NCBI GenBank assembly: GCA_964637995.1
Contig: CAZWXV010000002.1
Span: 15,122 to 67,159, forward strand
Origin: an uncultured Candidatus Saccharibacteria bacterium
GTDB lineage: Bacteria > Patescibacteriota > Minisyncoccia > Phycocordibacterales > UBA9973
Reading direction: 5' to 3'
Length of the DNA stretch: 52,038 bases
Below are positions 25,134 to 40,913 of this stretch, one piece after another. The position numbers were made by a program, and so were the translations under genes. Numbering within the stretch: position 1 is the first letter of the stretch; every line of letters begins with the position of its first letter. The notes below the pieces were generated by a model. It searched no databases and was not told the origin of the DNA. It saw only the letters and a list, made by a program, of their open reading frames with translations.

Positions 25134-25192
25134 CTGATTTGTCGTAAATTTTTTGGCTGTGTCTTTAAAATCCCAATCAGGGATTTTTTACT

Positions 25193-25741: not shown

Positions 25742-25747
25742 CTCCCT

Positions 25748-26527
25748 ATGAAAAAATTAATTATTATCTTTAGCATTGTGCTGGCCGCAATTATCGGTAT
25801 TGTCATCTTAAAGAACAGCCCGGCGACTTCTTCCATCATTTGGAACCTCAGCCGGGAAGGCACGTGGCTTCTGCCGCTTCTCCTCGTATCCGCGCTTTTA
25901 GACAGCGTGCACCCTTGTTCCTTCTCTATTCTCCTCATTACCATTGCGTTTCTCTTCGGGATACAGCTAAGCAGAAAGAAAATCCTGCAGTTGGGCGGAA
26001 CATATATAGCCGGGATATTCACGGCCTACTTCCTGATAGGCCTTGGAATTCTTAAAGTATTGCACCTCTTCAATACGCCGCACTTCATGGGCAAATTGGG
26101 CGCGATTCTGCTGATAATCTTCGGGGTTGTCAACCTGTTAAACCGTTTCTTTCCCGGATTACCGATAAGGCTGAAAATCCCAGGAGTGGCCCACGGTGCA
26201 ATAAGCAAACTTATGGACCGGGCATCCTTTCCGGCGGTGTTTGGCCTGGGGCTTCTGGTCGGCATCTGCCAGTTTCCATGTATGGGTGGGCCATACCTCA
26301 TGGTCATAGGCCTTCTGCGCGACCAAGTGACTTACATGAGCGGATTCGGCTACCTCTTGCTCTATAATCTGATTCTGATTGTTCCTTTGGCGGCTGTGCT
26401 GTTTATATCAGCGGACAAAACATTGGTCGATAAGGTGCAGATATGGAAGCGGGACAACATTGGCGGCGTTAAGCTCTGGGCGGGGACGGCCATGATTATT
26501 ATCGGCATCCTAATCTTCTTCATATGA
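25748..26527 (+). CDS. CcdA/DsbD-family thiol:disulfide electron-transfer membrane protein
   Basis: 259 aa with conserved transmembrane cysteines in DSVHPCSFSIL and CQFPCMGGPYL. Confidence 0.7.
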   Translation: MKKLIIIFSIVLAAIIGIVILKNSPATSSIIWNLSREGTWLLPLLLVSALLDSVHPCSFSILLITIAFLFGIQLSRKKILQLGGTYIAGIFTAYFLIGLGILKVLHLFNTPHFMGKLGAILLIIFGVVNLLNRFFPGLPIRLKIPGVAHGAISKLMDRASFPAVFGLGLLVGICQFPCMGGPYLMVIGLLRDQVTYMSGFGYLLLYNLILIVPLAAVLFISADKTLVDKVQIWKRDNIGGVKLWAGTAMIIIGILIFFI

Positions 26528-26826
26528 CAATAGCAATATCATCTATTCTTGCGCTGACGCTTCTGGTTTGGCTGCTCGATAAAAAATTGCCGGTAAAAAT
26601 TTGTTCGATATGCGCCGGAGTAACCCTTACCTGGGCATGGATGCTCTTTGGCATGTGGTTTGGACTTCTGTCTGTGCCCCGCTACGAATTTATTACCGCA
26701 ATTTTGATGGGCGCGTCGATAGGCGGTATTGTGACCGAGCTTAAGAAATTGTTCCTGAAGTTCAAAAACAGTAAAGAAAGCACAGCAGCCGAAATAATAG
26801 AAAAACAATTGGATAACTGCTGTTAA
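26524..26826 (+). CDS. Small membrane protein with an intramembrane CxxC and a C-terminal CC
   Basis: 100 aa. Has KICSICAGV in a transmembrane helix and ends ...LDNCC. Overlaps the CcdA-like gene by 4 bp. Confidence 0.45.
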   Translation: MTIAISSILALTLLVWLLDKKLPVKICSICAGVTLTWAWMLFGMWFGLLSVPRYEFITAILMGASIGGIVTELKKLFLKFKNSKESTAAEIIEKQLDNCC

Positions 26827-26848
26827 ATTATCAGCTAATTAAAACAAA

Positions 26849-27601
26849 ATGAAAAAAGCAAAAGAAGTTCTATCTGCATTGCTGGTTATCATCGTGATTG
26901 TGTTTTTAGGTCTTACTCCGGTTACGCCGACCGGCACGTTTTCTATCCGGTGGGGAGATTTGGGAGTCAGACTGGCGGAAGCCGGCGTCATTGATGCGAA
27001 TAAATTTCCAGATTTCTACGATGAAGAATTTATGACAATCAGCCCGGAAAACTCCAGAGTTGCCTTAAACACGTTGTGGGCCCTCGGTCTCTCGAATAAA
27101 AATCCAATTCTTACGGAAGGTCCGATGATGGACCCGAGATATGGCGGCGCGGAAAATTTCGCGTCCACCGGCGGATGGACACTAGCCAAAGGCGATACGA
27201 TGAGCCACTATGGCATGCACTCATTCATAACTCTTACACCCGAACAGCAGGATTTGGTGGAACGGATGTCTAAAAATATCTATCGGCCGTGTTGCGGGAA
27301 TTCCACCTATTTCCCTGATTGCAACCATGGCATGGCCATGCTCGGATTATTGGAACTGATGGCTTCGCAGGGCGCTATGGAAGCTCAGATGTATAAAACC
27401 GCACTAGAGGTAAACACTCTCTGGTTCCCGGATACTTATGCGGCAATTAAAACTCTTTTTGCTTCCCGGGGCGTTGACTGGAGCACAGTTGACCCGAAAG
27501 AAATTTTAGGAGCGGAATATTCCAGCGCGTCCGGGTATCAAAGGGTTTTGTCGCAAATAGAACCGCAGCAGCAAAAGGGCGGGCCGAGCTGCGGCGTTTA
27601 A
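26849..27601 (+). CDS. Hypothetical secreted Cys-rich protein
   Basis: 250 aa with an N-terminal signal/anchor sequence and YRPCCGNSTYFPDCNHGMAM. Confidence 0.45.
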   Translation: MKKAKEVLSALLVIIVIVFLGLTPVTPTGTFSIRWGDLGVRLAEAGVIDANKFPDFYDEEFMTISPENSRVALNTLWALGLSNKNPILTEGPMMDPRYGGAENFASTGGWTLAKGDTMSHYGMHSFITLTPEQQDLVERMSKNIYRPCCGNSTYFPDCNHGMAMLGLLELMASQGAMEAQMYKTALEVNTLWFPDTYAAIKTLFASRGVDWSTVDPKEILGAEYSSASGYQRVLSQIEPQQQKGGPSCGV

Positions 27602-27623
27602 CAGATTCAACATTAAAAAATAT

Positions 27624-28148
27624 ATGCAATACAAAACAACACTCTTACTTGTACTTCTCATGCTCGGAATCACAGGCGGCATCAGCTGGCTGTATATCGC
27701 TCAGGGAGAAAAGAACGAGGAAAAATTAAGTAAGACAATGATTGGCGAAAAAATACCGGAGATGGGCCGCGGCCATGTCAAACCAGGGCAGTCGCACGCA
27801 GAGTATAATTCCAATCCTCCTACTTCAGGACCCCACTGGGTAGGCGTGGCGGGTCCCGGAATAAAAGCCGAACCGGTTGCCGACGAGCTGGTGCTTCATA
27901 GCATGGAGCATGGCGCGGCAGTAGTTTGGTATCGGGAAGGGTTGGATCAAAGCGAGATAGAAAAAATAAAAGAGGCGTTCAACAATTCTTCCGGAAAGAA
28001 AATTATGTTGTCGCGCAAAGACTTAGATGTGCCGGTCGCGCTGACTTCATGGGGTTATCTTCTAAAGCTTGAGACGATTGATGAGGCAGCAATCAAGGAA
28101 TTCATTGAAACCAATAATGACCGAGCGCCAGAAAAAGCTCCGGTTTAA
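27624..28148 (+). CDS. DUF3105-domain protein
   Basis: 174 aa with NSNPPTSGPHW, HSMEHGAAVVWY and ALTSWG. Confidence 0.65.
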   Translation: MQYKTTLLLVLLMLGITGGISWLYIAQGEKNEEKLSKTMIGEKIPEMGRGHVKPGQSHAEYNSNPPTSGPHWVGVAGPGIKAEPVADELVLHSMEHGAAVVWYREGLDQSEIEKIKEAFNNSSGKKIMLSRKDLDVPVALTSWGYLLKLETIDEAAIKEFIETNNDRAPEKAPV

Positions 28149-28177
28149 GCGAATTATTAATATCCATCAAAAACAAT

Positions 28178-28315
28178 ATGAACTACCTATTACTTATTTT
28201 TCTTGGTGTTTGTGTAGCCCTCCACATTTGGATGATGTTTAGGGGGCACAAAGGACACAAAAAACAGACTAGTGATGAACATAAAGGGAATAATCATGGT
28301 GGATGTTGCCATTAA
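28178..28315 (+). CDS. Small membrane peptide with a His-rich tail ending GGCCH (45 aa; below the ORF-track length cut-off)
   Basis: My own translation is MNYLLLIFLGVCVALHIWMMFRGHKGHKKQTSDEHKGNNHGGCCH. Confidence 0.4.
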   Translation: MNYLLLIFLGVCVALHIWMMFRGHKGHKKQTSDEHKGNNHGGCCH

Positions 28316-28379
28316 AAAATACACAATAAAATAGATTTTGGTTGCGGAACATAATTTTTCGTGATAAATTGTACGTTCA

Positions 28380-29390
28380 ATGGCAAAGAACTACACATTT
28401 CACGTTTCCGGCACGCATTGCGCGTCCTGCAAAATCTTGATTGAAGATATTCTGAAAGAGCAGGACTTTGTGAAAAGTTCTAGAGTGGATTTGAAAAAAC
28501 AAACTTTAGAAATTGAGACTGAAAGCGAAGAGAACGCTGAAGAAATTGCCGCCATCCTGACCGAAAAGATAAAGCCACACGGCTATGAGCTGTCAGTCGA
28601 AAAAAAGCTTCCTGTGCAAAAAGGAGACGACGTTATCTGGAAAGCCGTACCTGTAGGGCTTGGCGTGCTCGCGCTTTTTTTCCTCCTGCAAAGGTCGGGG
28701 ATTCTCAATTTTGGCTTGGGCGGCCAAGCCACTCCGGCGACCAGTTTTATCATCGGTCTGGTTGCCTCGGTTTCCAGCTGTCTGGCGATTGTGGGAGGTT
28801 TGGTGCTGTCGCTCTCGGCGAAAATATCACAGGATGATGTAAGCGACACTAAAACTTTCCTGCTTTTTCACATAGGAAGATTGTTCAGTTTTGCAATTTT
28901 GGGCGGAGTTCTTGGAGCGGTTGGCAACGCGATAGGTATTAATTTTACATTTACCGCAATTCTTGGAATTATTGCATCTCTGGTTATGCTATTGCTTGGA
29001 TTGAATTTAGTCGGAGTATTTGCAAAAAGTCACATTACTTTACCGTCAGGAATTTTTAATTTCTTCCGGAAGATAGAACACAAAACTTTCACGCCTCTTC
29101 TTATTGGCTTTGGAACATTTTTCTTACCTTGCGGGTTTACGCAGTCAATGCAAGTTGTCGCGCTCGGCAGCGGTTCCTTTGTTTCCGGGCTCATGATAAT
29201 GTTTGCGTTCGCGCTTGGCACGCTACCAATGCTCGCATTGCTTTCTTTCGGCTCGGCATCTTTCGCGCACGGGAAGCACGCGCCGCTTTTCTTCAAATCC
29301 GCGGGTGTGGTCGTGGTGGGCCTCGGATTGTTTGCGTTGCTCTCAGGTCTGGCAGCCTTGGGTATTATCAGCCCGTTATTTAGTATATAA
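28380..29390 (+). CDS. HMA-domain fused to a TauE/SafE-like (DsbD_2-type) membrane protein
   Basis: 336 aa. Has an N-terminal FHVSGTHCASCKILIE, then about six transmembrane helices with FFLPCGFTQSM. Confidence 0.75.
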   Translation: MAKNYTFHVSGTHCASCKILIEDILKEQDFVKSSRVDLKKQTLEIETESEENAEEIAAILTEKIKPHGYELSVEKKLPVQKGDDVIWKAVPVGLGVLALFFLLQRSGILNFGLGGQATPATSFIIGLVASVSSCLAIVGGLVLSLSAKISQDDVSDTKTFLLFHIGRLFSFAILGGVLGAVGNAIGINFTFTAILGIIASLVMLLLGLNLVGVFAKSHITLPSGIFNFFRKIEHKTFTPLLIGFGTFFLPCGFTQSMQVVALGSGSFVSGLMIMFAFALGTLPMLALLSFGSASFAHGKHAPLFFKSAGVVVVGLGLFALLSGLAALGIISPLFSI

Positions 29391-29401
29391 TTGCTTCAAT
29401 C

Positions 29402-29797
29402 ATGAATAAATCAGTTTTAGTTATAATCACATTGGGAATTGTTGCAGCTTTCGGCATTATTTTTTATGGCGGTGAGCAAAAATCCGCTTCGGTTGATAAC
29501 GTAGAGGTTCGGGACGGGGTACAATATATAACCATCGATGCCAAAGGGGGTTATTCACCCGCAATTTCTGCCGCGCAAGCGGGTATGCCCACCAAACTAA
29601 TAGTCAAAACGAACGGCACTTACGACTGCTCGGCGGCGCTCCTGGTGCGTGATGCGAATTTCCAACAGATGCTGCCCGGAACCGGCGAAACGGAGATTGA
29701 CCTTGGTATGAAGAATGCCGGAGAGAAAGTAGAAGGGGTGTGCGGCATGGGCATGTATAACTTTGAAATTAATTTCGAGCCCCCGAATTCCGAATAA
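29402..29797 (+). CDS. Cupredoxin-like small anchored protein
   Basis: 131 aa. Has a transmembrane anchor and then QYITIDAKGGYSP...YDCSAAL...GVCGMGMYNFEINF, the Cupredoxin_1-type pattern often found next to HMA-TauE genes. Confidence 0.55.
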   Translation: MNKSVLVIITLGIVAAFGIIFYGGEQKSASVDNVEVRDGVQYITIDAKGGYSPAISAAQAGMPTKLIVKTNGTYDCSAALLVRDANFQQMLPGTGETEIDLGMKNAGEKVEGVCGMGMYNFEINFEPPNSE

Positions 29798-29849
29798 AAG
29801 GCTCTAAAACCCCGATTAAACCAGCCTTACTAAGGCCTTTGCCGGCCTA

Positions 29850-29878
29850 TTGCCTGTATTTCCAATAAACCTTATAAT
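29850..29878 (+). promoter_or_regulatory. Promoter TTGCCT-17-TATAAT upstream of the giant surface protein gene
   Basis: TTGCCT at 29850-29855 and TATAAT at 29873-29878, giving a leader of about 50 nt before the TTG/GTG start. Confidence 0.5.
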
Positions 29879-29934
29879 ATTGTTGAGCGCAAGCGTTTAA
29901 TTTGGCATTTGATTTTGCTTAGCGCCGAGAACAT

Positions 29935-32900
29935 TTGGTGAACAAAATAAAAAAAATTGGCCTGACAAAGAGCATCAAAACGACACTGCCCGCAGTTTTG
30001 CTGTTTTTCTTTGTTTTTTACAACATTCTCTTTGCGGCGCCGGGTACGCCGCTTATGCTCCACCATCAGGGCCGGCTGCTTGATTCTTCGGGCAATCTTT
30101 TAGGTGGCTCTTCCGGCACTAATTATTGTTTCCGCTTTTCTTTCTATGATAATGCCACGGTAGGTAGCGGTTCCAAACTTTGGCCTGCCGGTACGCCGTC
30201 AAAAATGACGGTCAACGTCAAAGACGGAGTACTCAATGCCGACATCGGCGACACGACCGCCGGCGGAGACTCTCTGGATTTTAATTTCCAAACTACAGAT
30301 GAAATTTATCTCAACATTGAGGTGGCCAATTCTTCGGGAGGGTCCTGCGCGAGCGTAACTACCTTCGAAACCTTGAGTCCGCGCCAGCGCGTAGTTTCCG
30401 CAGGTTACGCTATCAATTCTAAGACAGTCGGCGGCTTCACTCCTTCGCAGACTCCTACGGGCAATCAGATCCCCGTGCTTACTTCCGGCGTACTGGCTTT
30501 GGGCGCGAATGACATCACCATGACCGGTTCTATTGGCACGACGCTCGCGAGAATTCTCAAGGGCTGGTTCACGGATTTGGAAGTGACCAATTCGATAGTC
30601 GGTAGCATCACGGGGAATGCGGGAACGGTAACGACCAATGCGAACTTAACGGGGGCAGTTACCTCTGTCGGCAATGCTACATCTTTAGGTTCGTTTACAT
30701 CAGCCAACTTACTGACTGCTTTAACTGATGAAACGGGAACGGGAGTCGCGGTGTTCGGCACAGCGCCGACATTTACTACTAGCATAACTGCGCCTCTTGT
30801 AATAGGGGGAACGGGAACAACTGATGATTTGATTTTAAGAACTACTTCTGGTGTGGGAGCGACAGGCGCGGATATGATTTTCCAAGTCGGCAATAATGGC
30901 GCCACGGAAGCCATGCGGATACTGAATTCCGGTTTTGTGGGAATAGGTACGACAGCGCCATCAACCCTCCTTCACCTTCGGAGCGCGGACCCAGTGATGA
31001 CCTTTACCGACACAACGGCTAGTAGTGATGAGTTCCATATTCGGAACGGCGCTGCGGGGACAGCTATGTTTGATATTTATAATGCTACTGAAACCCAGAG
31101 TATGCTTACGATAGTGGGAGATAGCGAGGTGAGAATCGGCTCAAGTACAAATCCGGGAGGTATAGGCAATGCTAGTCGCTTACTTGTTTATGGCGGAACA
31201 AACGGTGCAAATATTGACGCTTTGGGAGATGGAACCATTGTCGGCGGCGACCAGGCGACTATTGAACTGGAAGGTTCTGACTACGCAACAGAGTTCAAAA
31301 GCACTCGCCTTCAGTACCATGGGGTAAATGCTATCGGCACAACGATGGGTTTCAGCCTGGTTAACCTCGGACAATTGACATTTCAGAGCGCTAGTACGGC
31401 TATAATAAGGACGACCAATGCCATACCAATAATCTTTGGAACAGACGACACAGAAAGAATGCGTCTAGATAGCACCGGAAAACTCGGTATCGGTTCAATC
31501 TCACCCGAAGCCCTCCTCGAAGTACAGGGAATAGAAGCCACCGATGCGATCATCGCGCTCGATGCGGACGACGGAGACGATGCTACTGATACTTGGTTTA
31601 TAAAATCTCTGGCTTCCGACAATTCTCTTTCAATATTAAATGATGTTACTGAAGTTTTTAATCTTTCCTCAGGAGGGAATCTTGCGGTTGACGGCACTAT
31701 TGCCGCTTCCAACTTCTCAGGTTCTTCTTCCGGTGCAAATACCGGCGATGTCACCTTGGCTGGAACTCCCGACTACATAACTATCGCCAGTCAAGTCATA
31801 ACCAGAAACAAACTTGACCCGGCGGATGATTTAAATACTTTTGCGTCAGGCGTTCTTGCTGGTCTAGTAACCGACGAAATCGGAACGGGAGCTTTAGTAT
31901 TTGCAACTTCCCCAACTTTGACTACCCCGGTTTTAGGCGTAGCCACTGGAACAAGCCTTGCCACATCAGCCCAAAATATTTTCACGGCTACCGGAGGGAC
32001 TGCCCCGCTCGTTGTTCGTTCGGCTACGGCTACGGATGACGATTTAAGACTCTTGCCTTTTACAACCGGTGCTGCGCGCTTTGCCGGCATTATAACCTCC
32101 GCTGACCTTACCGCTGATAGAACTTATACTTTTCCAGATACTACCGGAACGGTTGCCCTGACCACTAACAATCTCTCGGTCTTTGCCGCTACCACTTCGG
32201 CTCAACTGGCCGGAGTAATCAGCGATGAAACCGGCAGCGGAGTTCTAGTCTTCGCCACAAGTCCTACCCTTGTAACGCCTGCTCTCGGAACACCGTCAGC
32301 ATTAGTTGGCACAAACATTACAGGCACAGCTTCCGGTTTGACTGCCGGTAATGTGACGACCAATGCGAATTTGACGGGAGCTATCACTTCTGTCGGCAAT
32401 GCCACATCTTTAGGCTCGTTTTCATCAGCTAATTTATTGACTGCCTTAACGGATGAAACGGGAACAGGAGTGGCGGTCTTTGGAACAGCTCCGACATTTA
32501 CAACCCAAATAACCACACCCCTTGTTTTAGGCGGAACTTCGACTACTCAAGATTTATCTTTCCAAACCACATCTGGCGTAGGCGCCACGGGAGCCGATAT
32601 GCATTTCTTGGTAGGCAACAATGGAACTACGGAAGCCATGACTATTTTGAATAGTGGTTTTGTTGGAATTGGAACAGTAGCCCCGCTAACTGCATTTCAC
32701 GTGGTAGATACTTCGGGAACTGTTCTCTACCTTGATGAGTATGTGGGGTCGGCTTCAGGAGCAACCATCCGTGGACGAAAAGCGCGGGGAACGGCAGCAG
32801 CACCTCGAAGGGCTAACACCGGGGATACACTTGCAGGATTTAATGCATTCGGAGCAACAGCTGTCGATGATGCGACTGACGCGGTATTTCCTTCTAACGC

Positions 32901-35900
32901 AAACGGGCAGTTCAGATATTTCGCCGCGGAGAATTTCACTTCCACGTCCACAGGAACATATTTGACTTTAACCACTACACCTACAGGGTCTACAACCTCT
33001 GCAGAAAGGTTTAGAATTGACCCTTCCGGAGATGTCGGGATTGGCGCCACGGACCCGGCTCTTGTTTCAGGATCCTCCGATAGGATTTTAGCAATTGAAG
33101 GAGCCACTAATCCGTTAATCGCTCTTAAGAACACAACAGCCAATCAGCAGTGGGCTTGGTATGTCGGTAGTGCCGGCACACTTACTGCGTTCGACGCGAC
33201 AAGCACAAGTAATAGAATGGGTATTACTACGTCCGGCAATGTCGGCATAAATACCATTTCACCTCTTGTCAGACTCGACGTCGCAGGCTCAGGCAGATTT
33301 ACCGGCACAGCGACTTCTGTTTTGACCGGTACTATTGATCCCGCGGCTTCCACTACGGTTACTGGTGTAGGAACTTTATTTACTACTGAACTAGTAGTCG
33401 GCGACAGAATCACCGTCACGGGCGAGACAAGAACGGTTACAGCCATCGCTACGAATACTAGTTTGACCGTAGATACAGCTTTCACGGATAACTTAAACGA
33501 CACCTCTCCCGACAAACTGGCGGCTATATTGCTGGCGAGGGATTCCAGCAATGTAGTGAAGGTTGCGGTGAATGATTCCGGGTTTGTTGGAATAGGAACC
33601 AGCAGTCCTTCCACGTTACTTTCTGTGGTTGGAGTAGGCACCGCAGAATCGGCACGAATAGACAATCCACAATCAACTACCGCTTTTGCTTCCACATTTG
33701 GAGCTTTGAATTTGGTAAATTCTGACGCTACGGCAAATAACTTTGCGAGACTGAATTTCACAGGTTCTTCAAGTACCGCAGCTTCAGCCACAGTCGCAGG
33801 TAGATTGCTTGACCACACTAATAATTATGCCGACCTTACTTTTTGGACTAGAAGCGCCGCAGGATTCACGGAAAAAATGACAATTCTTTCCACAGGTGCC
33901 GTCGGCATCGGGACAAACGCGCCGGACTACACCTTAGACGTAGCTGTCAGCGATTCCGCCACTGCCACCGTTGCACAACTCTTGAGGCTGTCTCACAGGA
34001 GCACCGGCCTTGTTGCCAGCGGTTTTGGAGCCGGAATCCGGTTTGATCTGGAGACTGCAGCTGACACACTTCAGGAGGCGGGAAGCATAGAAACTTCATG
34101 GAGAAACGGCCCAGATGCGGATGCGCATATGATTTTTAAACTTTTTACCGAAGGCGGAACATCCCAGCAGTTCTTTAAAATTGATTCCATAGGCTCCGTG
34201 GAGATTGGAGCGGCTGATAGCACCGTGGCTACAATATTGAATAATAAAATAACTTTACACGATCCATCCACAGCCCTTTCCAACGATGCTACATTTGGAA
34301 CCATTGATTTCCAACACTCTGATGCTTCAGATCCCGGTGTACCTGTTAAGATAGAAGCCAGAGCAGACGGCACGACCGGCGGCGGGGCCTTGGTTTTCTC
34401 GACCGGTTTCCCTTCCGTCGACCCGGCATTGTCCGAGAAAATGCGAATAACTAATTCCGGCAACGTTGGTATCGGTACCTCGGCGCCTCTACTAAAACTC
34501 GACGTCGCCGGTTCGGAAAGAGTCACCGGTGCTGCAACTTCTGTTTTAACAGGAAGTATTAACCCAACAGCATCAACAGCTGTTGTTGGCGTTGGCACTC
34601 TCTTCACTACGGAATTAGTAGTTGGTGACAGAATTACTGTTAGCGGAGAAACAAGAACAGTAACAGTCATAACTGATGCTCTAAACCTTACCGTTGATAC
34701 AGCTTTTACCGATACTGCTAACGACACAACGCCGGATAAATTACCCGCAATATTCTTAGCCAGAGATTCCAGTAATGCGGTGAAATTCTCGGTTAATGAT
34801 TTGGGAAATGTGGGTATCGGAACAGCAGCGCCGCTATCTACTTTCCACCTATTTAGTAGTGCAACATCTGATGTATTTGCAGGCATGGGCCTTGACCCCT
34901 CTTTCGGGGGAGCAGGTAGCGCAATGAATTTCGGTTATTCTGGCGCATCTTTTGGTAGAGGTTCAGGTTTCTTTAATGTTAGACCAGACGCTTCTGCCAC
35001 AGGCCTTAACCCATCTCTTAGATTCGCAACAAATAATATTGTGGGTCTTGTTATTGATAAAAACCAAAATGTGTCAATTGGCGCTTCTCTCGCCGTGGGA
35101 ACCAGCGCGGTCAAAGTATTTGGGATCGGCAACGGTACTGCTCCTACAACAGCCCCCGCCGACATGATTCAGTTATGGTCTGCCGATTATGCAGCGGGAG
35201 ATGCCCGTCTTTTCCTTCGTTCCGAATCGGGCAACGCGATGGCTTTGGGCAACAGCACTATCGTGGGCGGCTCGGCAACAACGGATGATTTGATTCTTCG
35301 CACCACATCCGGAGTCGGAGCCGCTGGCGCGGATATGATATTCCAAGTGGGGAACAACGGAGCCACGGAATCTATGAGAATTTTAAATAGCGGCAATGTC
35401 GGCATATCGACTACTGTGCCGCAGTCCTTGCTGGATGTGCAAGGTCCAGTGGGTACGGGAGCAACATCCGCAGGTATCCTCACTCTTGCTACAAAGGAAC
35501 TTACTATAGTTGATAACGACCAGTTGGGACGAATCAATTTTAATTCACCTCTTGAGTCGGATGGTCTAGATTCTATTTTAGCAGGCGGGGCCATATGGGC
35601 TGAAGCCGAAGCTACTTTCAGCACTACAGTTAATAGCACAGCATTGGTATTTGGCACAGCTACTACATCGGCGGCGGTGGAAAGAATGAGGATCGACAGC
35701 GCGGGCGGGATTACTTTCCCTGCCGAAGCAGGAGCATTCGCGAACGACTATTTGTGTATAGCTACGGGGACTGGAGCCATCAGTTCCAAGGCAACAGCAT
35801 GTACCGGAAGCTCTTCATTACGATACAAGAAAAATATTAAAGACCTTGAACTTGGGCTTGATGCGGTGCTGGCGATGCGCCCTGTGGAGTTTGATTGGAC

Positions 35901-36573
35901 TCTAGAATACATAAAAAATCCTAATGCCCCTCGCCAGATAGGATTCATTGCCGAAGAGATGGAAAAGATCAGTCCATTGTTCGTATCGTATGAGGATGGG
36001 CAAATAGAGGGAGTAGAGTATATGAAACTTACATCTGTATTAGCAAAGGCAATTCAGGATTTGAATCTAAATCTAGAATCAATAGCAATTCCACTTGATT
36101 TTGAAAATGAAAAATCGTTTGCGGAAAGGTTTTTCGCCAAGATGACGGAGTGGCTCGCGGATGCGGGCAATGGCATAACGGATATGTTTGCCAATACGTT
36201 CAATGCCAAAGAAAAAATTTGTGTGGACGGGGAGTGCCTGACCAAGGAAGACATCCGCGCCCTGCTCATCCTATCCGGCTCATCTTCTTCAGGTTCTTCA
36301 GGCGGCGGCGGTTCTCCTGCTCCTGAGCCCGCGCCGGAACCTGCCCCTGAACCAACTCCGGAACCAGCACCCGAACCAGTTCCGGAGCCCGCACCCGAGC
36401 CGACTCCAGAACCGGAACCTGTCCCTGAACCAATCCCGGAACCTACACCAGAGCCTACTCCCGAACCCGCACCCGTACCCGAACCTGTTGTTGAACCTAC
36501 ACCTGAACCCGAACCTGCCCCAGAACCCGTCACCGCCGATGGCGGGACCCCGCAGGATGCGGTGGCGCTTTAA
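29935..36573 (+). CDS. Giant (2212 aa) secreted phage-tail-fibre-like protein with a peptidase-S74 intramolecular chaperone domain and a PEPx-repeat tail
   Basis: TTG (29935) or GTG (29938) start, with an N-terminal signal/anchor. Ten modules end in ...MRI..SG.VGIGT..P...[15 protein letters not shown]...[13 protein letters not shown]...[17 protein letters not shown] domain matches the tail-fibre/endosialidase chaperone pattern. The C-terminus is a Gly/Ser run followed by (PEPx)n. Confidence 0.85.
30631..30960 (+). repeat. Intragenic repeat family 1, copy a (330 nt)
   Basis: Encodes [22 protein letters not shown]...[32 protein letters not shown]. Clearly similar at the DNA level to 32356..32685, offset exactly 1725 nt and in frame. 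Confidence 0.85.
32356..32685 (+). repeat. Intragenic repeat family 1, copy b
   Basis: Encodes [22 protein letters not shown]...[32 protein letters not shown]. Confidence 0.85.
33235..33609 (+). repeat. Intragenic repeat family 2, copy a (375 nt)
   Basis: Encodes [36 protein letters not shown]...[24 protein letters not shown]...FVGIGTSSP. Confidence 0.85.
34459..34833 (+). repeat. Intragenic repeat family 2, copy b (offset exactly 1224 nt)
   Basis: Encodes [36 protein letters not shown]...[24 protein letters not shown]...NVGIGTAAP. Confidence 0.85.
35266..35421 (+). repeat. Intragenic repeat family 1, partial copy c
   Basis: Encodes [52 protein letters not shown], matching the second half of copy a. 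Confidence 0.8.
36316..36528 (+). repeat. Tandem 12-nt (Pro-Glu-Pro-X) coding repeat
   Basis: Encodes [71 protein letters not shown]. Confidence 0.9.
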
Positions 36574-36582
36574 TCTGCGATT

Positions 36583-37890
36583 ATGCTTCGTAACTTAACC
36601 GGCAAAATTTTTCTCATTTTAATTCTTTTGGTTTTTGGCGCCGGAGCTTTTTCTTACGCGTTCGCGGATTTTAGCAGCACCAGTTTTACGCTGGAAAACC
36701 CAATCAATATCATCGAGGGCGGACAGTCATCCTCGACCAGTTTCCAATATTTTTCCAGCACCGGTCAGCTTACCAGCGGGCAAAGCACCAGCACAAGCTT
36801 TAGCAAAAATACCGGCTTTTTATATTATCCTACGGCGACTTCCCCGGCCCTTTCTGCCACGGCTGGTAATTCACAAGTGACGCTCGATTGGACCGCGGCA
36901 GTCGGAACCCTAGCAAACATCACGAGCTACGAAGTAGGCATCAGCGCTACATCCGGAGGCACTTACACCTATACCTCAGTCGGCAACGTGCTTTCCGACA
37001 CCAGGACGGGCCTAACCAACGGCATCACTTATTTTTTTAAAGTCCGCTCTTATGCCGGGGGTCTTCTTTTGAGCGAGTCTGCCGAAGTAAGCGCTACTCC
37101 GGTTGCGCCGGTTACTCCGCCCAGCGGAGGCGGTGGAGGCGGTGGAAGCGGCAGCTTTCCCGCCGAAATTATTCTTTCCGGACGAGCATATCCTCTGAGC
37201 AGGGTTAGCGTCCTAAAAGACGGGCAGCTTGCGGTAACGACCATAGCCGGACCGGACAGCAACTTTACCGTGTCCTTGGGCAATCTCTCGACCGGCGATT
37301 ACACCTTTTCTGTCTATGGCGAAGACAAGGCCGGCCGGCGCTCCAGCCCGTTTATTTTCCAGGTTTATATTACTCGCGGCGTGGCTACGAACGTCGGGGG
37401 CATATTCATATCTCCGACCATCGCCGTGGATAAAAAGGAGGTAAAAAGAGGCGAAAACATAGTTATCTTCGGGCAAAGCGCCTCGGTTTCCGACATCGTT
37501 ATCAGTGTCAATTCCGAACAGGAAATTTTCAAGAATGCCAAAAGCGATGCGAGCGGCGCGTATCTCTTGAATTTTGACACTTCGGTGCTGGAGCTCGGCG
37601 GGCACTCCGCAAAGTCCAAAGCTTTAAAGGGCGGTGAAATCAGCGATTTCGGAAACCCGGCGCTTTTCGCGGTCGGGTCGAAGACATTGCCGGCTCAGTC
37701 GATTCTCCTCGGCAAGTGCGACCTAAATGAGGACGGCCGGTGCAACCTGGTAGACTTTTCCATCGCCGCCTACTGGTATAAACGTCCGCTTGCGGGAGGC
37801 ATAATACCCAAGGAAGTGAAATACTTGAACGGGGACGGCAGGATAGACCTGGTGGATTTCAGCATCATGGCTTTTTACTGGACGGGGTAA
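36583..37890 (+). CDS. Secreted FN3 + Ig-like + C-terminal dockerin-repeat protein
   Basis: 435 aa with a signal peptide. Has three S(S/T)TSF motifs and an FN3-like segment (VTLDWTAAVG...ITSYEVG...GITYFFKVRSY). Ends with two EF-hand-like dockerin repeats, DLNEDGRCNLVDFSIAAYW and LNGDGRIDLVDFSIMAFYW. Confidence 0.75.
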   Translation: MLRNLTGKIFLILILLVFGAGAFSYAFADFSSTSFTLENPINIIEGGQSSSTSFQYFSSTGQLTSGQSTSTSFSKNTGFLYYPTATSPALSATAGNSQVTLDWTAAVGTLANITSYEVGISATSGGTYTYTSVGNVLSDTRTGLTNGITYFFKVRSYAGGLLLSESAEVSATPVAPVTPPSGGGGGGGSGSFPAEIILSGRAYPLSRVSVLKDGQLAVTTIAGPDSNFTVSLGNLSTGDYTFSVYGEDKAGRRSSPFIFQVYITRGVATNVGGIFISPTIAVDKKEVKRGENIVIFGQSASVSDIVISVNSEQEIFKNAKSDASGAYLLNFDTSVLELGGHSAKSKALKGGEISDFGNPALFAVGSKTLPAQSILLGKCDLNEDGRCNLVDFSIAAYWYKRPLAGGIIPKEVKYLNGDGRIDLVDFSIMAFYWTG

Positions 37891-37896
37891 AGCATT

Positions 37897-38769
37897 ATGA
37901 ATAATTACACTAAAAATTTCCTTATCTTGGTTTTGTCTCTGTTTTGGCTCGTGCCCGGGACCCTTTTTGCGGCGGAAATATTTTTTAGGTCCGATCAGAA
38001 TGTTTTTCCGGTAAAAGAAAGTTTCTTGGTAGAAGTATTTATGGACACGGAAAGCGCTCGGATAAACGCAGTGGAGGGAACTATCTTGTTTCCGGACGAG
38101 CTTTTGGAACTAAAAGAGATCAGAGAAGGAAACTCCGCTCTCAATTTCTGGGTAGACAAGCCCGAAAGTGCGGAACCCGGGAAGATATCTTTTTCCGGAA
38201 TGACCCCCGGCGGATTTTCCGGAGCTGACCGGCTTTTATTCGGAATAATATTTGAAACCAAAAAGCTGGGGGAGAGCAGCCTCCGATTCGGCGGAACCGT
38301 AGCCCTGCTTAACGACGGATTGGGGACAAAAACGGATGTAGAAGAAACAAATTTCGATTTTGCCGTTTCCGCTTCGGCCGGAGCCGCGGACAGAGACTTG
38401 GCGCTCCTGGATACCGAGCCGCCGGAGAGCTTTACTATTTTTGTTGCGAACGAGCCCTCCTTATTTGAAGGCAAATATTTTGCCGTATGGAGTACGGTGG
38501 ATAAAGGCGCGGGCATGGACCACTACGAGGTGCGTGAAGGCTTCTGGGCAGACTTCGAAACGGCAGAAAGCCCGCATATACTAGCTGACCAGTCGCTCCG
38601 GAAAAATATATACGTCAAGGCGGTGGATAAATCGCAAAACGAAAGAGTGGTAAAAATGAAAGCCCAAAACGGCGGCCTCGGGTTGGCCGCCTGGACGGTT
38701 CTTGTTATAATCATACTAGTGGTTATCTTGATGTTACGTAAAAAAATATGGCCAAAGCGTCCCGAATAA
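37897..38769 (+). CDS. Cohesin-like domain protein with a C-terminal membrane anchor
   Basis: 290 aa with a signal peptide. Contains FPVKESFLVEVFMDTESARINAVEGTILFPDELLELKEIREGNSALNFWV...GKISFSGMTPGGFSG...LLFGIIFETKKLGESSLRF (cohesin pattern) and the transmembrane helix AAWTVLVIIILVVILML near the C-terminus. Confidence 0.65.
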   Translation: MNNYTKNFLILVLSLFWLVPGTLFAAEIFFRSDQNVFPVKESFLVEVFMDTESARINAVEGTILFPDELLELKEIREGNSALNFWVDKPESAEPGKISFSGMTPGGFSGADRLLFGIIFETKKLGESSLRFGGTVALLNDGLGTKTDVEETNFDFAVSASAGAADRDLALLDTEPPESFTIFVANEPSLFEGKYFAVWSTVDKGAGMDHYEVREGFWADFETAESPHILADQSLRKNIYVKAVDKSQNERVVKMKAQNGGLGLAAWTVLVIIILVVILMLRKKIWPKRPE

Positions 38770-39881
38770 TAATATTTCTTTTCTTGTTCATCTTTCTTCC
38801 GGTTGTGGCGCACGCGGCGACTCTTTCGCTTTCTCCCGACACCGGCAGTTTTGAAGTAGGTGACCGAGTTTCGGTTCGGGTTATTGCCTCATCCTCGACT
38901 TCCCTTAACGCCGTGTCGGGCACGGTATCGTTCCCAACATCGCTTTTTACCGTGGAGTCGGTTTCCAAAGCGGGCTCCATAATTGATTTCTGGGTGACCG
39001 AACCTTCGGTTTCCAAGGCTTCCGGCACTGTCAAATTCGAAGGTGTGGCGCTCGGCGGCTTCAACGGCTCTTCGGGCACTGTGGCCACTCTCCACTTGCG
39101 CGCCGCAAAAACCGGCTCAGCTAAGCTGACGTTCCAATCCGGCCAGATACTAGCGAATGACGGCGCGGGGACGAACATTACCGGCACTCTTGCCGGAGCG
39201 ACATATACTATCAAACCGGCATCCCCAAAGCCCGTGCCCATACCGGAAGAAGAGATAGAGCCGGAGGTAACTCAACCATCCCCATCGCTCCAGGCGCCGG
39301 AGATAATGCTCGGTTCGAAGTACGGTGCTGGAGCCATCATCGGTACGTCTATTCACGGCAAGGTGCAGGTGCTGATAACTTTCGTGGCGCGGGACGGAGT
39401 GAAAATCTTCATTGCCGGTATTTCCGACAATGAGGGAGGTTTTGGCATTATCGTACCGACCTCGCTTAAACGGGGAGTTTATACCGTAAGCGCGGTGGTC
39501 ATCAAAGAAGACAAGACCAACAGTGATCCTTCGAATACCATTGTCGTATCGGTGGGCAGCATTTTCTCGGATATCGGCTGGGAAGTATCGCTCCTGATTA
39601 TCCTCCTCGTACTCTGCATACTATATCTTTTGCTTCGCATTCATACACATCTCAAAGACAAAGGGCCGAGGAGCCCTATTCCCACCAAGGAGGAAATGCG
39701 CCAGGCGGAGGAGACCATACGCAAATCATTTAAAGCCCTACAGGACGATGTGACCGACCGGTCGCGAGGAATAATAAACCCCGTGGAACGGGCCAACATA
39801 GAGGAACTTAAAAAAGATATTAACTCCACCGAGGCCTTGTTGGAGAAAGAAATAAAGAGTATAGGTGAAGAGCGAAAATAA
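38748..39881 (+). CDS. Cohesin-like domain protein with a TM helix and a cytoplasmic coiled-coil tail
   Basis: 377 aa with a signal peptide ending AHA. Contains LSLSPDTGSFEVGDRVSVRVIASSSTSLNAVSGTVSFPTSLFTVESVSKAGSIIDFWV...GTVKFEGVALGGFNGSSGTVATLHLRAAKTGSAKLTF and the transmembrane helix VSLLIILLVLCILYLLL. The tail is charged. Overlaps the previous gene by 22 nt. Confidence 0.65.
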   Translation: MAKASRIIIFLFLFIFLPVVAHAATLSLSPDTGSFEVGDRVSVRVIASSSTSLNAVSGTVSFPTSLFTVESVSKAGSIIDFWVTEPSVSKASGTVKFEGVALGGFNGSSGTVATLHLRAAKTGSAKLTFQSGQILANDGAGTNITGTLAGATYTIKPASPKPVPIPEEEIEPEVTQPSPSLQAPEIMLGSKYGAGAIIGTSIHGKVQVLITFVARDGVKIFIAGISDNEGGFGIIVPTSLKRGVYTVSAVVIKEDKTNSDPSNTIVVSVGSIFSDIGWEVSLLIILLVLCILYLLLRIHTHLKDKGPRSPIPTKEEMRQAEETIRKSFKALQDDVTDRSRGIINPVERANIEELKKDINSTEALLEKEIKSIGEERK

Positions 39882-39923
39882 AATTTTCAAAAAACAGCTT
39901 TTTGTTGTATAGTAGCTGGTGTT

Positions 39924-40913
39924 ATGTCGCTTTCCATCGGAATCGTTGGTCTGCCGAACGTGGGGAAATCCACGCTCTTTAATGCGTTGACCAAAAAAAG
40001 CGTGCCGGCGGAAAATTACCCTTTTTGCACCATTGACCCATCGGTGGGTATCGTGCCCGTGCCGGACGAGCGGGTAGGCAAGCTTTCCCTACTCTCGCAT
40101 TCCAAAAAAACTATTCCCGCGGTCATAGAATTCGTGGATATTGCCGGCCTGGTGGCCGGCGCCTCCTCGGGCGAGGGTCTCGGTAATAAATTTCTGTCCA
40201 ACATCCGCGAGGTGGATGCCATAGCGCACGTCGTGCGCGTGTTTGAGGACCCGAGCGTAATACACGTGGCGCAGAAAATAGAGCCCATGAGCGACATCGG
40301 CGTCATTAATCTAGAGCTCGTACTTTCGGATATGGAAATAGTTTCCAAACGATTAGCCAATCTTACCAAAGACGCCAAGCGGGGGGACAAAGAAGCCATT
40401 GCGGAGGAAATGGTGCTCAAGAAAGTGGAGCAGGTTCTGGAGGCGGGCCGGATGGCCGCCGAAGCCGGGCTTTCCAGAGACGAAAAACTAAAAATAAAAT
40501 CTCTCAATTTGCTGACCCTGAAACCCATGCTTTATGTACTCAATACTTCGGAGGCGAATAATAATGTGGAGGTTGAAGCGCCCGGAGCTTCGGTCAAAGT
40601 GGATTCCGTTTTTGAAAAAGGATTCGACGACCTGATCAAGGCAAGCTACCAGCTTCTGGGGCTCGAAACGTTTCTTACTACCGGAGAGGACGAGACCCGC
40701 GCCTGGACCATAAAAATCGGTTCTACCGCTCCGGAGGCAGGGCAGGCGATTCACACCGACTTCAAGGATAAATTCATCCGCGCGGAGGTCATCTCTTACG
40801 AAAAGCTTATAGAAGCGGGTTCCCGCGCCGCGGCCCGCGAAAAAGGCTGGGTTCGCACTGAAGGCAAGGAATACATAGTGCAGGATGGCGACGTAATAGA
40901 ATTTTTGATATGA
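39924..40913 (+). CDS. ychF: Obg-family ribosome-binding ATPase YchF
   Basis: 329 aa with IGIVGLPNVGKSTLFNALT and a TGS-like C-terminus ...EGKEYIVQDGDVIEF. Confidence 0.9.
   Translation: MSLSIGIVGLPNVGKSTLFNALTKKSVPAENYPFCTIDPSVGIVPVPDERVGKLSLLSHSKKTIPAVIEFVDIAGLVAGASSGEGLGNKFLSNIREVDAIAHVVRVFEDPSVIHVAQKIEPMSDIGVINLELVLSDMEIVSKRLANLTKDAKRGDKEAIAEEMVLKKVEQVLEAGRMAAEAGLSRDEKLKIKSLNLLTLKPMLYVLNTSEANNNVEVEAPGASVKVDSVFEKGFDDLIKASYQLLGLETFLTTGEDETRAWTIKIGSTAPEAGQAIHTDFKDKFIRAEVISYEKLIEAGSRAAAREKGWVRTEGKEYIVQDGDVIEFLI

Follow-up and report, generated by a model that had tools for sequence, protein, structure and literature searches.

How a giant protein built like a phage tail fibre comes to lie beside a dockerin protein and two cohesin-bearing membrane proteins, and what the four might do together, is the question raised by this locus, a chromosomal operon of an ultra-small groundwater bacterium of the Patescibacteria/CPR (Paceibacteria/Parcubacteria-type) from the Rifle aquifer. 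No published description of this gene combination was found, in keeping with the earlier remark that it had no described function. Within the window, the whole stretch of 52,038 nt that was analysed, four plus-strand ORFs (g1 to g4) occupy positions 29935-39881, tightly packed and co-oriented as first read. The spacers are 9 nt between g1 and g2 and 6 nt between g2 and g3, while g3 and g4 overlap by 22 nt; the last two values suggest co-translation. The g1 start codon is TTG, and one public gene call of 2211 aa is consistent with a GTG start at 29938, one codon later. All four proteins begin with a hydrophobic segment that has an A-x-A-type site; the signal peptides predicted for each of them are retained as putative. 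The features are as follows.

29850..29878, plus strand: promoter-like site TTGCCT-17-TATAAT in the 137-nt gap upstream of g1
29935..36573, plus strand: g1, secreted giant fibre protein of 2212 aa, MAT-like, of phage tail-fibre ancestry
30040..30450, plus strand: g1 N-terminal beta-rich 'handle' domain, aa 36-172, directly after the signal peptide
30814..35439, plus strand: g1 fibre body, ten repeat modules ending ...G-x-VGIG-T-x-x-P-x-x-x-L (capping-loop motif), from regular expression and module HMM
35788..36225, plus strand: g1 Peptidase_S74 intramolecular chaperone/autoprotease, aa 1952-2097, motif S-S-L-R-Y-K-K-N-I, Pfam PF13884
36292..36570, plus strand: g1 C-terminal low-complexity tail, Gly/Ser-rich then Pro-Glu-Thr-rich, from the translation
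36583..37890, plus strand: g2, putative secreted adaptor of 435 aa with signal peptide, conserved N-terminal peptide, FnIII domain, two Ig-like domains and dockerin
36658..36846, plus strand: g2 conserved N-terminal peptide, aa 26-88, three S-T-S-F-type motifs
37711..37887, plus strand: g2 C-terminal dockerin, aa 377-435, two Ca-loop/helix repeats
37897..38769, plus strand: g3, type-I membrane protein of 290 aa, from AlphaFold model and Foldseek
38748..39881, plus strand: g4, type-I membrane protein of 377 aa, from homology to the g3 cohesin

The sequence-only reading had placed all four genes behind one good promoter. The site in question is the top consensus match (10/12) within 29300-40200 and lies in the sole real intergenic gap of the region, but promoter-like sites are no more frequent there (16) than in shuffled controls (11 +/- 3.2), so that a promoter serving g1 to g4 at this position is plausible and unproven.

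The tail-fibre-like build ascribed to g1 was borne out by its modules and by database matches. The motif G-x-[VIL]-G-[IV]-G occurs in ten copies from aa 294 to 1835 (regular expression and module HMM), aligns with 'GNVGIGATAPTAKLEV' of Bd2133 and resembles the capping loop described for MAT fibres (PMC10769870). Tail-fibre families were matched in PHROG (phrog_9942 at 1.9e-41), and sequence matches in the PDB were to the Bdellovibrio MAT fibres 8ond/Bd2133 (1e-7) and 8oml (3e-7), the fibre modules further matching the MAT structures 8on4, 8ol4 and 8ojn. These MAT fibre adhesins, which had not been named at first, are a close described cellular counterpart of g1, and the cell-surface partner of their N-domain is stated to be unknown (PMC10769870). 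The C-proximal S74 domain also withstood an HMM check, in which PF13884 matched aa 1960-2015 with 42.2 bits (E 1e-10; cutoff 22), and the Ser and Lys of its S-x-x-x-x-K motif are conserved in ten aligned S74 segments, from g1 and nine g1-like ORFs. We infer that the g1 fibre is trimeric and self-cleaving and has a role in attachment. At its other end, the handle domain was matched at E <= 1e-3 by 993 representative clusters. The 150 listed matches (identity 47-93%, mostly 55-79%) all place it inside the N-terminal ~230 residues, for the most part at aa ~30-185; the proteins range from 194 to 5948 aa, and the domain is predicted to be a constant handle on otherwise varied protein bodies.

The S74 domain is a usual feature of phage fibres. 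Its presence in g1, the PHROG matches of g1 and the patchy identity of g1 to phage tail fibres (27-79%, the upper value across a 100-aa patch that the podovirus MW202697.1 tail fibre shares) would fit the remains of a prophage tail module, a tailocin, or a fibre belonging to an extracellular contractile injection system. This origin for the locus as it stands is extremely improbable. No capsid, terminase, portal, sheath, tube, baseplate or integrase gene was found among the annotated ORFs of the window, the flanking genes are housekeeping genes (a metal-handling cluster, YchF, an EamA transporter, a methyltransferase and LeuRS), and a related MAG has the same gene order, these neighbours included. 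The g2 family has no relative among 2.9 million IMG/VR viral contigs, nor was the g2-g3-g4 triad found there; the g1 handle likewise has no match in IMG/VR and is covered by none of the listed phage matches. Where a virion-attachment domain would be expected, g1 has an N-domain specific to cells, preceded by a signal peptide of the Sec type. The original view of a domesticated fibre rather than a prophage accords with these results.

Neither a dockerin nor a cohesin was found in g1; these modules belong to the three genes that follow. Both Ca-loops read at the end of g2, DLNEDGRCNLVD and (Y)LNGDGRIDLVD, are present, and 39 of 42 g2 orthologues match Pfam Dockerin_1 at E <= 0.01 (best 6.9e-9), the window g2 alone scoring 21.5 bits, slightly below the cutoff of 22.9. 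The family profile aligns along the entire length of solved dockerins (2y3n_B at 1.3e-4; also 5nrm_B, 4fl4_A and 1daq). Ligand positions 1, 3, 5, 9 and 12 of loop 1 are conserved in 40-42 of the 42 sequences. In loop 2, four of the five Ca-ligand positions are kept, and position 1 in the window is Tyr and not Asp. The remainder of g2, a family of at least 1896 homologues, matches Pfam Big_6 and fn3, and its AlphaFold monomer model (pLDDT 80.4) resembles tandem FnIII arrays in Foldseek searches.

For g3 (signal peptide, cohesin at aa 24-159, FnIII/Ig-like domain at 170-256, TM helix at 257-286 and a short basic tail), the 36 best PDB matches of the AlphaFold model (pLDDT 89.9) in Foldseek are all cohesins, among them 2vo8 (TM 0.83, rmsd 2.3 A) and, as the best, the cohesin+FnIII module 2w1n (E 1.5e-9). 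The g4 protein has a similar layout, with a signal peptide, a cohesin at aa 22-157, an Ig-like domain at 180-272, a TM helix at 271-302 and a 77-aa cytoplasmic tail, and its N-domain is homologous to that of g3 (BLASTP 1e-16; hhalign 99.8%, 3.6e-28). The Pfam Cohesin model was matched by 4 of the 37 relatives of g3, by 6 of the 39 of g4 (best 2.1e-6) and by neither g3 nor g4 itself; the cohesin domains and membrane anchors first assigned to both proteins are upheld by structure, homology and TM helices, but not by the Pfam search of the two proteins. Conservation was not concentrated on the strands of the 8-3-6-5 sheet, the canonical dockerin-binding face (entropy 1.55 vs 1.72, p = 0.48). The g2 dockerin probably binds the cohesins of g3 and g4, a pairing for which there is good reason.

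Cohesin and dockerin modules are a hallmark of cellulosomes, and both are present in g2 to g4. The FnIII domain of g2, moreover, has its best sequence matches in glycoside hydrolases (9vsf beta-1,3-glucanase FnIII, 1e-9), as might be seen in a cellulosome-like complex of small size that gathers enzymes for polysaccharide degradation at the cell surface. We consider such a complex very unlikely, given that searches of g1 to g4 and of the other annotated ORFs of the window turned up no glycoside hydrolase or other catalytic domain. The only dockerin-bearing protein across the window and 80 related loci is the non-catalytic g2 with its orthologues, each followed immediately by two or three cohesin genes, and g3 and g4 each have a single cohesin and a TM anchor, unlike the tandem-cohesin scaffoldin of cellulosomes.

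A survey of related loci showed that the conserved unit across Patescibacteria is the g2-g3-g4 triad. Its order is kept in 61 of 79 loci, 16 of these having a third cohesin gene after g4, and g3 directly follows g2 in 68 of the 79. The four-gene order, whose conservation the sequence-only reading had put forward for checking, is not that unit, and g1 proved to be one of many unrelated giants upstream of the triad. Of the 57 loci with enough sequence ahead of g2, 45 have a same-strand ORF of 800 aa or more no further than 3.5 kb upstream of it, and 28 have an ORF with g1-type features. Roughly one third of the upstream giants are recognisably g1-like; the remainder are unrelated adhesin-like proteins, with G8, Gly_rich_2, DUF2341 or SdiA-regulated domains in some. 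Most end in P/E/T-rich tails resembling that of g1 (34 of 50 in one BLAST cluster). Several, in loci L065, L084, L044 and L070, lack the g1-type N-domain, so one handle-socket pair cannot explain every locus. In most other loci the giant and g2 are separated by a gene for a small TM protein (~130-150 aa) that is absent from the window, so that the locus there does not show the typical arrangement. The domain identities, the pattern of membrane topology, the conservation of the triad and the variability of the upstream giants can all be stated with high confidence.

A tail-fibre-like protein also lies beside the pam operons of CPR bacteria (preprint 10.64898/2026.03.03.709456), which invites comparison with a Pam-like pilus assembled by chaperone-assisted donor-strand exchange, with g3 and g4 as membrane-anchored PamC/PamD-type chaperones and g2 as a PamT-like tip subunit. 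PamC and PamD share with g3 and g4 a layout of two beta domains and a C-terminal TM helix (same preprint), and aa 8-143 of g2 weakly match the NCBIfam model CPR_pilus_PamT (E 1.9e-6, 27 bits). That score is far under the 240-bit cutoff, however, and only 4 of 42 g2 relatives match the model; g3 and g4 match none of the NCBIfam Pam models, and the N-domain of g3 matches cohesins in structure, not PapD/FimC chaperones. With no PamA/PamB-type pilin gene in the locus or window, and a canonical dockerin in g2 where the preprint makes no mention of dockerins, a pilus of this kind is very improbable.

Our best reading of the whole, to which we give about an even chance, is a membrane cohesin-dockerin platform beside interchangeable giant adhesins, so that the g2-g3-g4 set may be a membrane socket that holds giant attachment proteins of Patescibacteria. 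The plug-in surface scaffold first proposed keeps its fibre, dockerin and cohesin identities, with the triad now as its unit and the fibre interchangeable with unrelated giants. In the proposed arrangement, g1 would belong with the MAT fibres of Bdellovibrio as a fibre adhesin that is secreted and forms trimers. It would consist of a signal peptide, the ~137-aa handle, a long beta-helical body of phage-tail-fibre modules and the S74 chaperone, which would drive trimerisation and then cut itself and the Pro/Glu-rich tail off at the Ser of the SSLRYK motif. The two membrane proteins would each hold a cohesin outside the cell upon an Ig-like stalk, and the Ca-binding dockerin of secreted g2 would plug into one or both. 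Docking would give a membrane-tethered stalk of three FnIII/Ig domains tipped by the g2 N-terminal peptide, which is predicted to capture cargo at the surface; the likeliest cargo is the N-terminal handle of the giants encoded just upstream. The constant platform would in this way display interchangeable host- or substrate-binding giants.

That g2 holds g1 is the key step of this scheme and a tentative one: g1 has neither docking module, and only the proximity of their genes links it with the platform. It is also possible, if doubtful, that g2-g3-g4 is an independent envelope module, such as a strut spanning the wall or S-layer, an envelope organiser or a glycan-binding stalk. The giants would then adjoin the triad through shared regulation or export alone and attach otherwise, for example by the N-domain to the wall or by the Pro/Glu-rich C-terminal tail. 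The triad is indeed far more conserved than any upstream gene, the giants are heterogeneous to the point that some lack the g1-type N-domain, and the FnIII and Ig domains of g2 resemble carbohydrate-associated modules, as in the glucanase match. The P/E/T-rich tail common to most giants could be a wall-spanning or anchoring segment, except that in S74 fibres it is removed along with the chaperone and so cannot anchor the mature fibre. Against an independent module stand the strong positional association of giants with the triad in very divergent genomes and the N-terminal peptide of g2, which is the most conserved part of the protein (invariant S32, P40, S51, F54, G66, G78 and P83), is confined to g2 orthologues in the window and 80 related loci, and has no confident fold in the monomer model (pLDDT < 50 at aa 26-81), a pattern characteristic of regions that take up a fold on binding a partner. 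The platform reading would also extend inwards: the g4 tail, 44% charged with two probable helices and plausibly a coiled coil, might link it with the cell interior, and this module is conserved in most g4 orthologues.

Four co-oriented ORFs (g1–g4) lie on the + strand, at the coordinates that the sequence-only reading had assigned to them:

Genes of the locus and their main parts
29935–36573, + strand: g1, giant S74 fibre-like protein, 2212 aa
36583–37890, + strand: g2, FnIII/Ig stalk ending in a dockerin, 435 aa
37897–38769, + strand: g3, cohesin-like protein with a predicted membrane anchor, 290 aa
38748–39881, + strand: g4, cohesin-like protein with a predicted membrane anchor, 377 aa
g1 aa 1952–2097, + strand: Peptidase S74 chaperone domain (PF13884 match plus Ser/Lys motif)
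g2 model, N to C: signal helix; low-confidence segment (aa 26–81); FnIII domain (aa 90–171); Gly linker; two Ig-like domains (aa 194–365); three helices (aa 389–434)

The genes are separated by spacers of 9 nt (g1–g2) and 6 nt (g2–g3), g3 and g4 overlap by 22 nt, and the sole real intergenic gap of the locus lies upstream of g1. This gap contains TTGCCT-17-TATAAT (29850–29878), which is the best sigma-70-like match of the region (10/12). The good promoter proposed here stands as the best consensus match, but promoter-like sites as a class are no more frequent than in shuffled controls (16 versus 11 ± 3.2). In all four proteins, a hydrophobic N-terminal segment precedes an A-x-A-type site, consistent with predicted signal peptides, while g3 and g4 each feature a second, C-proximal hydrophobic helix that is predicted to span the membrane. 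Groundwater contigs from the Rifle aquifer (PRJNA268031; GCA_001003625.1) encode an identical g2 protein, flanked by the genes that also neighbour it in the window, so the window most likely stems from this population. A related Minisyncoccia MAG retains both the four-gene order and the same downstream housekeeping genes.

The dockerin proposed for the C-terminus of g2 is clear from sequence at the family level. The window protein itself scores 21.5 bits against Dockerin_1 (PF00404), below the cutoff of 22.9 bits, but 39 of 42 g2 orthologues match this model at E ≤ 0.01 (best 6.9e-9) and the family profile aligns full length to the solved dockerins 2y3n_B (1.3e-4), 5nrm_B, 4fl4_A and 1daq. The C-terminus has the architecture of a type I dockerin, with two repeats of ~22 residues that each combine an F-hand Ca loop (positions 1, 3, 5, 9 and 12) with a helix. 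Loop 1 (D-x-N-x-D-x-x-x-N-x-x-D) keeps its five Ca-ligand positions in 40–42 of 42 sequences; in loop 2, four positions (3, 5, 9 and 12) are retained, and position 1 is occupied by Tyr in the window and by Asp in 14 of 42 sequences. One copy of the helix FSI[AM]A[FY] comes after each of the two loops. Pfam additionally detects Big_6 and fn3 in g2. Foldseek searches with the AlphaFold model (pLDDT 80.4) returned only generic tandem FnIII arrays and are thus uninformative on the dockerin.

Cohesin-like domains had also been proposed for g3 and g4, and here fold and homology support the proposal while the curated sequence model does not. The AlphaFold model of g3 (pLDDT 89.9) features the nine-stranded jelly-roll β-sandwich that superposes on solved cohesins, and its 36 best Foldseek matches in the PDB are cohesins only. 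The top match is the cohesin–FnIII double module of Clostridium perfringens GH84C (2w1n, E 1.5e-9), and the model superposes on 2vo8 with a TM score of 0.83 (rmsd 2.3 Å) and on 2xdh with 0.79. The N-domain of g4 is homologous to that of g3 over 151 columns (hhalign 99.8%, E 3.6e-28). Neither protein as a query matched Pfam Cohesin (PF00963) at E ≤ 0.1, nor did sequence-only PDB searches with either return anything significant. Among relatives, Pfam Cohesin was matched by 4 of 37 g3 proteins (best 1.2e-5) and 6 of 39 g4 proteins (best 2.1e-6), and the g3 family profile meets Ruminococcus flavefaciens cohesins only at E 0.28–0.84. Based on the structural model of g3 and on the homology of g4 to g3, both N-domains are predicted to be divergent cohesins, by fold rather than by a curated sequence threshold. 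In both proteins, an Ig/FnIII-like domain lies between the cohesin and the TM helix. Where a cytoplasmic coiled coil was suggested for g4, the protein has a conserved, charged tail of 77 aa that is predicted to be helical and may form a coiled coil. With strands mapped by order only, the 8-3-6-5 sheet of g3, to which dockerins canonically bind, has a conservation entropy of 1.55 versus 1.72 (p = 0.48).

At least 1896 g2 homologues were identified, and at least 500 stretches in a one-genome-per-species collection carry g2 relatives. All homologues with informative names are from Patescibacteria (Paceibacteria/Minisyncoccia, Nomura-, Uhr-, Magasanik-, Taylor-, Vogel- and Buchananbacteria). Eighty of the loci from this collection were then analysed with HMMs built from our own alignments. 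The gene next after g2 is g3 in 68/79 loci, and the full g2-g3-g4 order (the triad) is found in 61/79. A third cohesin protein of ~420–455 aa follows g4 in 16/79 loci, and one precedes g3 in 3 loci; the window locus has none, as YchF directly follows g4. Large proteins are also common upstream: among the 57 loci with enough upstream sequence, 45 have an ORF of 800 aa or more (a giant) that lies on the same strand and no further than 3.5 kb from g2. Only 16 of these 45 giants have g1-type features, some ORF with such features is present in 28/57 loci, and other giants bear G8, Gly_rich_2, DUF2341 or SdiA-regulated/phytase-like domains. The sequence-only reading had named conservation of the four-gene order in relatives as a check of its scaffold proposal; in this survey the conserved unit is the cohesin–dockerin triad, and the giant is its variable partner. 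Examples of the third cohesin protein occur in loci L013 (13312–14616), L015 (2996–4351) and L003 (11967–13322), and the L003 copy passes Pfam Cohesin.

In the best-supported mechanism, membrane-held g3 and g4 would display their cohesins, the dockerin of g2 would dock onto these, and the docked stalk would present a conserved N-terminal peptide. Docking is predicted from the strict adjacency of these genes, from g2 being the sole dockerin protein in these neighbourhoods and from established cohesin–dockerin biology. A similar logic is seen in the anchoring of cellulosomes (the type-I cohesins of Clostridium thermocellum OlpA and OlpC, 3ul4 and 4dh2, and type-II anchoring scaffoldins), which also pairs a cell-bound cohesin with a secreted protein ending in a two-repeat Ca dockerin, and the g3 model superposes on OlpA/OlpC-type cohesins with TM scores of 0.72–0.74. 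In contrast to cellulosome anchors, the triad uses a C-terminal TM helix rather than SLH repeats or a sortase linkage, has no tandem scaffoldin, places its dockerin on a non-enzymatic FnIII/Ig stalk and is encoded in a locus that lacks carbohydrate-active enzymes; no glycoside hydrolase domains were found in g1–g4 or in the other annotated ORFs of the window. An actual cellulosome was rejected because each protein has a single cohesin and the sole dockerin carrier across the window and the 80 loci is the non-catalytic g2. C. perfringens GH84C has the same cohesin–FnIII arrangement as g3, and the GH33 cohesin 2vo8 and Archaeoglobus fulgidus 2xdh are also among the best structural matches. As is proposed for the triad, the C. 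perfringens and A. fulgidus modules represent cohesin–dockerin use outside cellulose degradation. However, modules of this type join secreted enzymes or toxins, whereas the triad cohesins are on dedicated membrane anchors and are conserved phylum-wide beside giant adhesin genes.

The S74-type chaperone domain attributed to g1 was recovered by a PF13884 search (aa 1960–2015, E 1e-10, model positions 1–55 of 58) with 42.2 bits, above the gathering score of 22. Its catalytic motif is S-S-L-R-Y-K, in which the Asp at +1 of the reference dyad (S-D-x-x-x-K) is replaced by Ser; the Ser and Lys are kept in 10 aligned segments (nine g1-like ORFs of related loci and g1). The fibre modules were also confirmed, as the loop motif G-x-VGIG-T-x-x-P-x-x-x-L ends ten modules, and PHROGs places g1 in tail-fibre families (phrog_9942, 1.9e-41). 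A phmmer search of the PDB aligned these modules directly to structures of the mosaic adhesive trimer (MAT) fibres of Bdellovibrio bacteriovorus: Bd2133 (8ond, 1e-7), 8oml (3e-7), 8on4, 8ol4 and 8ojn. According to the MAT study (Caulton et al. 2024, PMC10769870), family members combine a signal peptide, a conserved β-rich N-domain of ~130 aa, a trimeric β-helix with the capping loop V-G-G/N-pi-x-x-P-x-x-x-L, and an S74 terminus or other tip domain, and the cell-surface element bound by the N-domain is stated there to be unknown. Set beside that description, g1 has a predicted signal peptide followed directly by a candidate for the conserved β-rich N-domain (~130 aa in MAT, ~137 aa in g1), and it shares with the S74 subgroup a long body of phage-fibre modules with a V-G-x-G-x-x-x-P-x-x-x-L capping loop, a C-terminal S74 chaperone/protease and an origin in a bacterium that lives on other cells. 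In comparison with the MAT fibres described, g1 has roughly double the length (2212 aa versus ~1000 aa), has a Pro/Glu-rich tail beyond the S74 domain and is encoded by a Patescibacteria bacterium rather than by Bdellovibrio. Overall, the sequence of g1 fits the MAT family description, and g1 is probably a MAT-type fibre. Patescibacteria as a group are not known to possess an outer membrane. The g1 C-terminus (window 36292–36570) is a Pro/Glu/Thr-rich low-complexity tail, which S74 cleavage would take off.

The N-domain of g1 (aa 36–172, 137 aa) recurs in 993 representative clusters. All 150 matches listed place it in the first ~230 residues of the carrier, for the most part at aa ~30–185, on proteins of 194–5948 aa and with 47–93% identity (mostly 55–79%). 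This domain behaves as a constant handle on varied proteins, and one named carrier is a Nomurabacteria 'Peptidase S74 domain-containing protein'. Comparison with S74 phage fibres (K1F endosialidase and the T5 L-shaped fibre pb1) showed that g1 shares the S74 domain with its Ser-Lys motif and a number of fibre modules, but that a Sec signal peptide and cell-specific N-handle replace the virion-attachment domain, and g1 is chromosomal with no phage genes nearby. None of the phage-fibre matches listed, which are patchy (27–79% identity), covers the N-domain, and no relatives of this domain or of g2 and the triad were found in IMG/VR. A prophage, tailocin or eCIS was rejected, in agreement with the earlier view that the locus is not a prophage: the ORFs annotated in the 52 kb of the window have housekeeping, metabolic or metal-handling roles, and there is no capsid, terminase, portal, sheath, tube, baseplate or integrase gene among them.

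One g1 module has a close phage counterpart. Residues 741–840 (window 32155–32454, paired in this observation with positions 6001–6300 of locus L085) match part of the tail fibre (1025 aa) of MW202697.1, an uncultured podovirus with a 45-kb circular genome from Manatee Spring (Florida), at 79% identity (tblastn 2e-30). A second phage from this spring, MW202701.1, is 63.5% identical across g1 aa 739–849, while the remainder of g1 has only 27–49% identity to phage fibres. The 79%-identical module of 100 aa points to recent module exchange, possibly with a phage linked to Patescibacteria or their hosts. In loci L012, L022, L059 and L063, a g1-type N-domain is encoded by its own ORF of ~385–1050 aa, which lies in a different frame and directly adjoins or overlaps the ORF of the giant, as could result from assembly-error frameshifts or from genuinely split genes.

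Despite its low-confidence fold, the peptide that the docked stalk would present, g2 aa 26–88 (the N-peptide), ranks with the best-conserved segments of g2, with invariant S32, P40, S51, F54, G66, G78 and P83. Across the window and the 80 loci, both the dockerin and this N-peptide occur in g2 orthologues only. We infer from the gene neighbourhood, and from the parallel between a handle and a peptide that are both conserved, that the N-peptide would capture the N-handle of g1-type giants. Some giants have unrelated N-termini. In the main rival reading, which we consider somewhat unlikely, the triad would instead be an independent envelope module, with the giants attached by other means. Capture of the handle by the N-peptide can also be extended to a general surface socket of Patescibacteria, in which the triad would hold the handles of MAT-like and other giants, these episymbionts could swap host-recognition fibres on a constant anchor, and the g4 tail, on its cytoplasmic side, would signal or stabilise the attachment; taken as a whole, this tentative proposal seems to us rather unlikely. 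The N-peptide region (window 36658–36846) contains three S-[ST]-S-F-type motifs: FSSTSFTLENP, SSSTSFQYFSSTGQ and STSTSFSKNTGFLYYP.

A relationship to the Pam pilus system of CPR (Patescibacteria) was also considered. Both systems are CPR-specific surface assemblies with Sec-exported Ig-like proteins and membrane-anchored two-domain helpers that have a C-terminal TM helix, and g2 has a weak match to the NCBIfam model of the tip protein PamT (E 1.9e-6), which may reflect a distant sequence relationship between the N-peptide and donor-strand pilus subunits. However, the triad has cohesins instead of PapD-like chaperones and lacks PamA/B pilins, and its assembly would proceed by docking rather than by donor-strand exchange. 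A Pam-like pilus was rejected, as the PamT match scores 27 bits, where the cutoff is 240, and only 4 of 42 relatives have it, the g3 fold is that of a cohesin, and the locus encodes no pilin-like protein.

In keeping with the earlier suggestion that this gene combination has no described function, we found no description of the system in the literature searched on cohesins and dockerins in CPR, Patescibacteria, Parcubacteria, Paceibacteria or Nomurabacteria. Related remarks are limited to SEML1_0315, an essential dockerin protein of Southlakia epibionticum (PMC10633639), and to an unexplained tail-fibre-like protein that adjoins pam operons (Troman et al. 2026 preprint, 10.64898/2026.03.03.709456). 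SEML1_0315 (927 aa) has a different gene context and no cohesin neighbours, and was rejected as a counterpart of g2 other than as a loose precedent. The parts of the system are of known kinds (cohesin, dockerin and S74 MAT-like fibre), whereas the pair of TM-anchored cohesins with a dedicated dockerin stalk, its phylum-wide conservation and its tie to giant adhesins appear to be undescribed. A central open question in CPR/Patescibacteria biology is how these ultra-small cells recognise their hosts and keep hold of them; to our knowledge, the only systems with molecular support so far are type IV pili and the Pam pili described recently. The locus points to a third, very widespread candidate attachment system, and it connects CPR biology to the MAT adhesins of predatory Bdellovibrio. 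If the general socket reading were true, it would name the kind of surface partner that the MAT paper left open, and would provide a cohesin–dockerin system that serves primarily in cell–cell attachment rather than enzyme assembly. Cohesin–dockerin docking is Ca-dependent and of high affinity, and S74 fibres are self-cleaving trimers; since the biophysics of these parts is well understood, the hypothesis is directly testable without culturing the organism. The triad also offers a natural membrane-anchored candidate cohesin–dockerin pair from a new lineage for protein-display engineering.

Most giants carry a Pro/Glu/Thr-rich tail like that of g1 at the C-terminus, regardless of the domains in their bodies. 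These low-complexity tails place 34 of 50 giants in one cluster, which we take as compositional similarity rather than as proven homology of a shared C-terminal handle. The giant of L007, otherwise different from g1, carries ITADGGTPLEAVAP near its C-terminus (the tails were observed on giants in L005–L084). Most Patescibacteria loci also encode a small protein between the giant and g2. This family (54 members, ~125–160 aa; loci L007–L084) has an N-terminal TM helix and the motif ...VAKVSKLVVLP-GE-PTVATVSDPEALKDQ-FF-A-KGDKVLIY..., with examples in L007 (3824–4240) and L012 (9555–9947), and it may be a further component of the triad system. In some lineages, a class A β-lactamase-like protein of ~330 aa, labelled by eye from its SxxK and SDN motifs, is likewise encoded between the giant and g2. 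Both proteins are absent from the window locus and its close relatives, and the 131-aa (cupredoxin-like) and 336-aa (DsbD_2+HMA) genes upstream of g1 in the window do not match these ~130-aa and ~330-aa intervening genes.

Elsewhere in the window, another probable surface protein, which combines a PKD domain with two matches to the Lamin Tail Domain (468 aa; 11743–13149), is encoded among sugar-metabolism genes (GlmS, a pfkB kinase, transketolase, phosphoketolase and phosphotransacetylase). Directly upstream of the locus, a run of metal-handling genes, probably for copper (19507–29797), encodes a P-type ATPase with an HMA domain, DUF305, HXXEE, DUF302, DUF1573 and DUF3105 proteins, a DsbD_2-HMA fusion and a small cupredoxin-like protein. 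This run includes a low-GC stretch (38.5% at 22001–24000 versus ~48% elsewhere).
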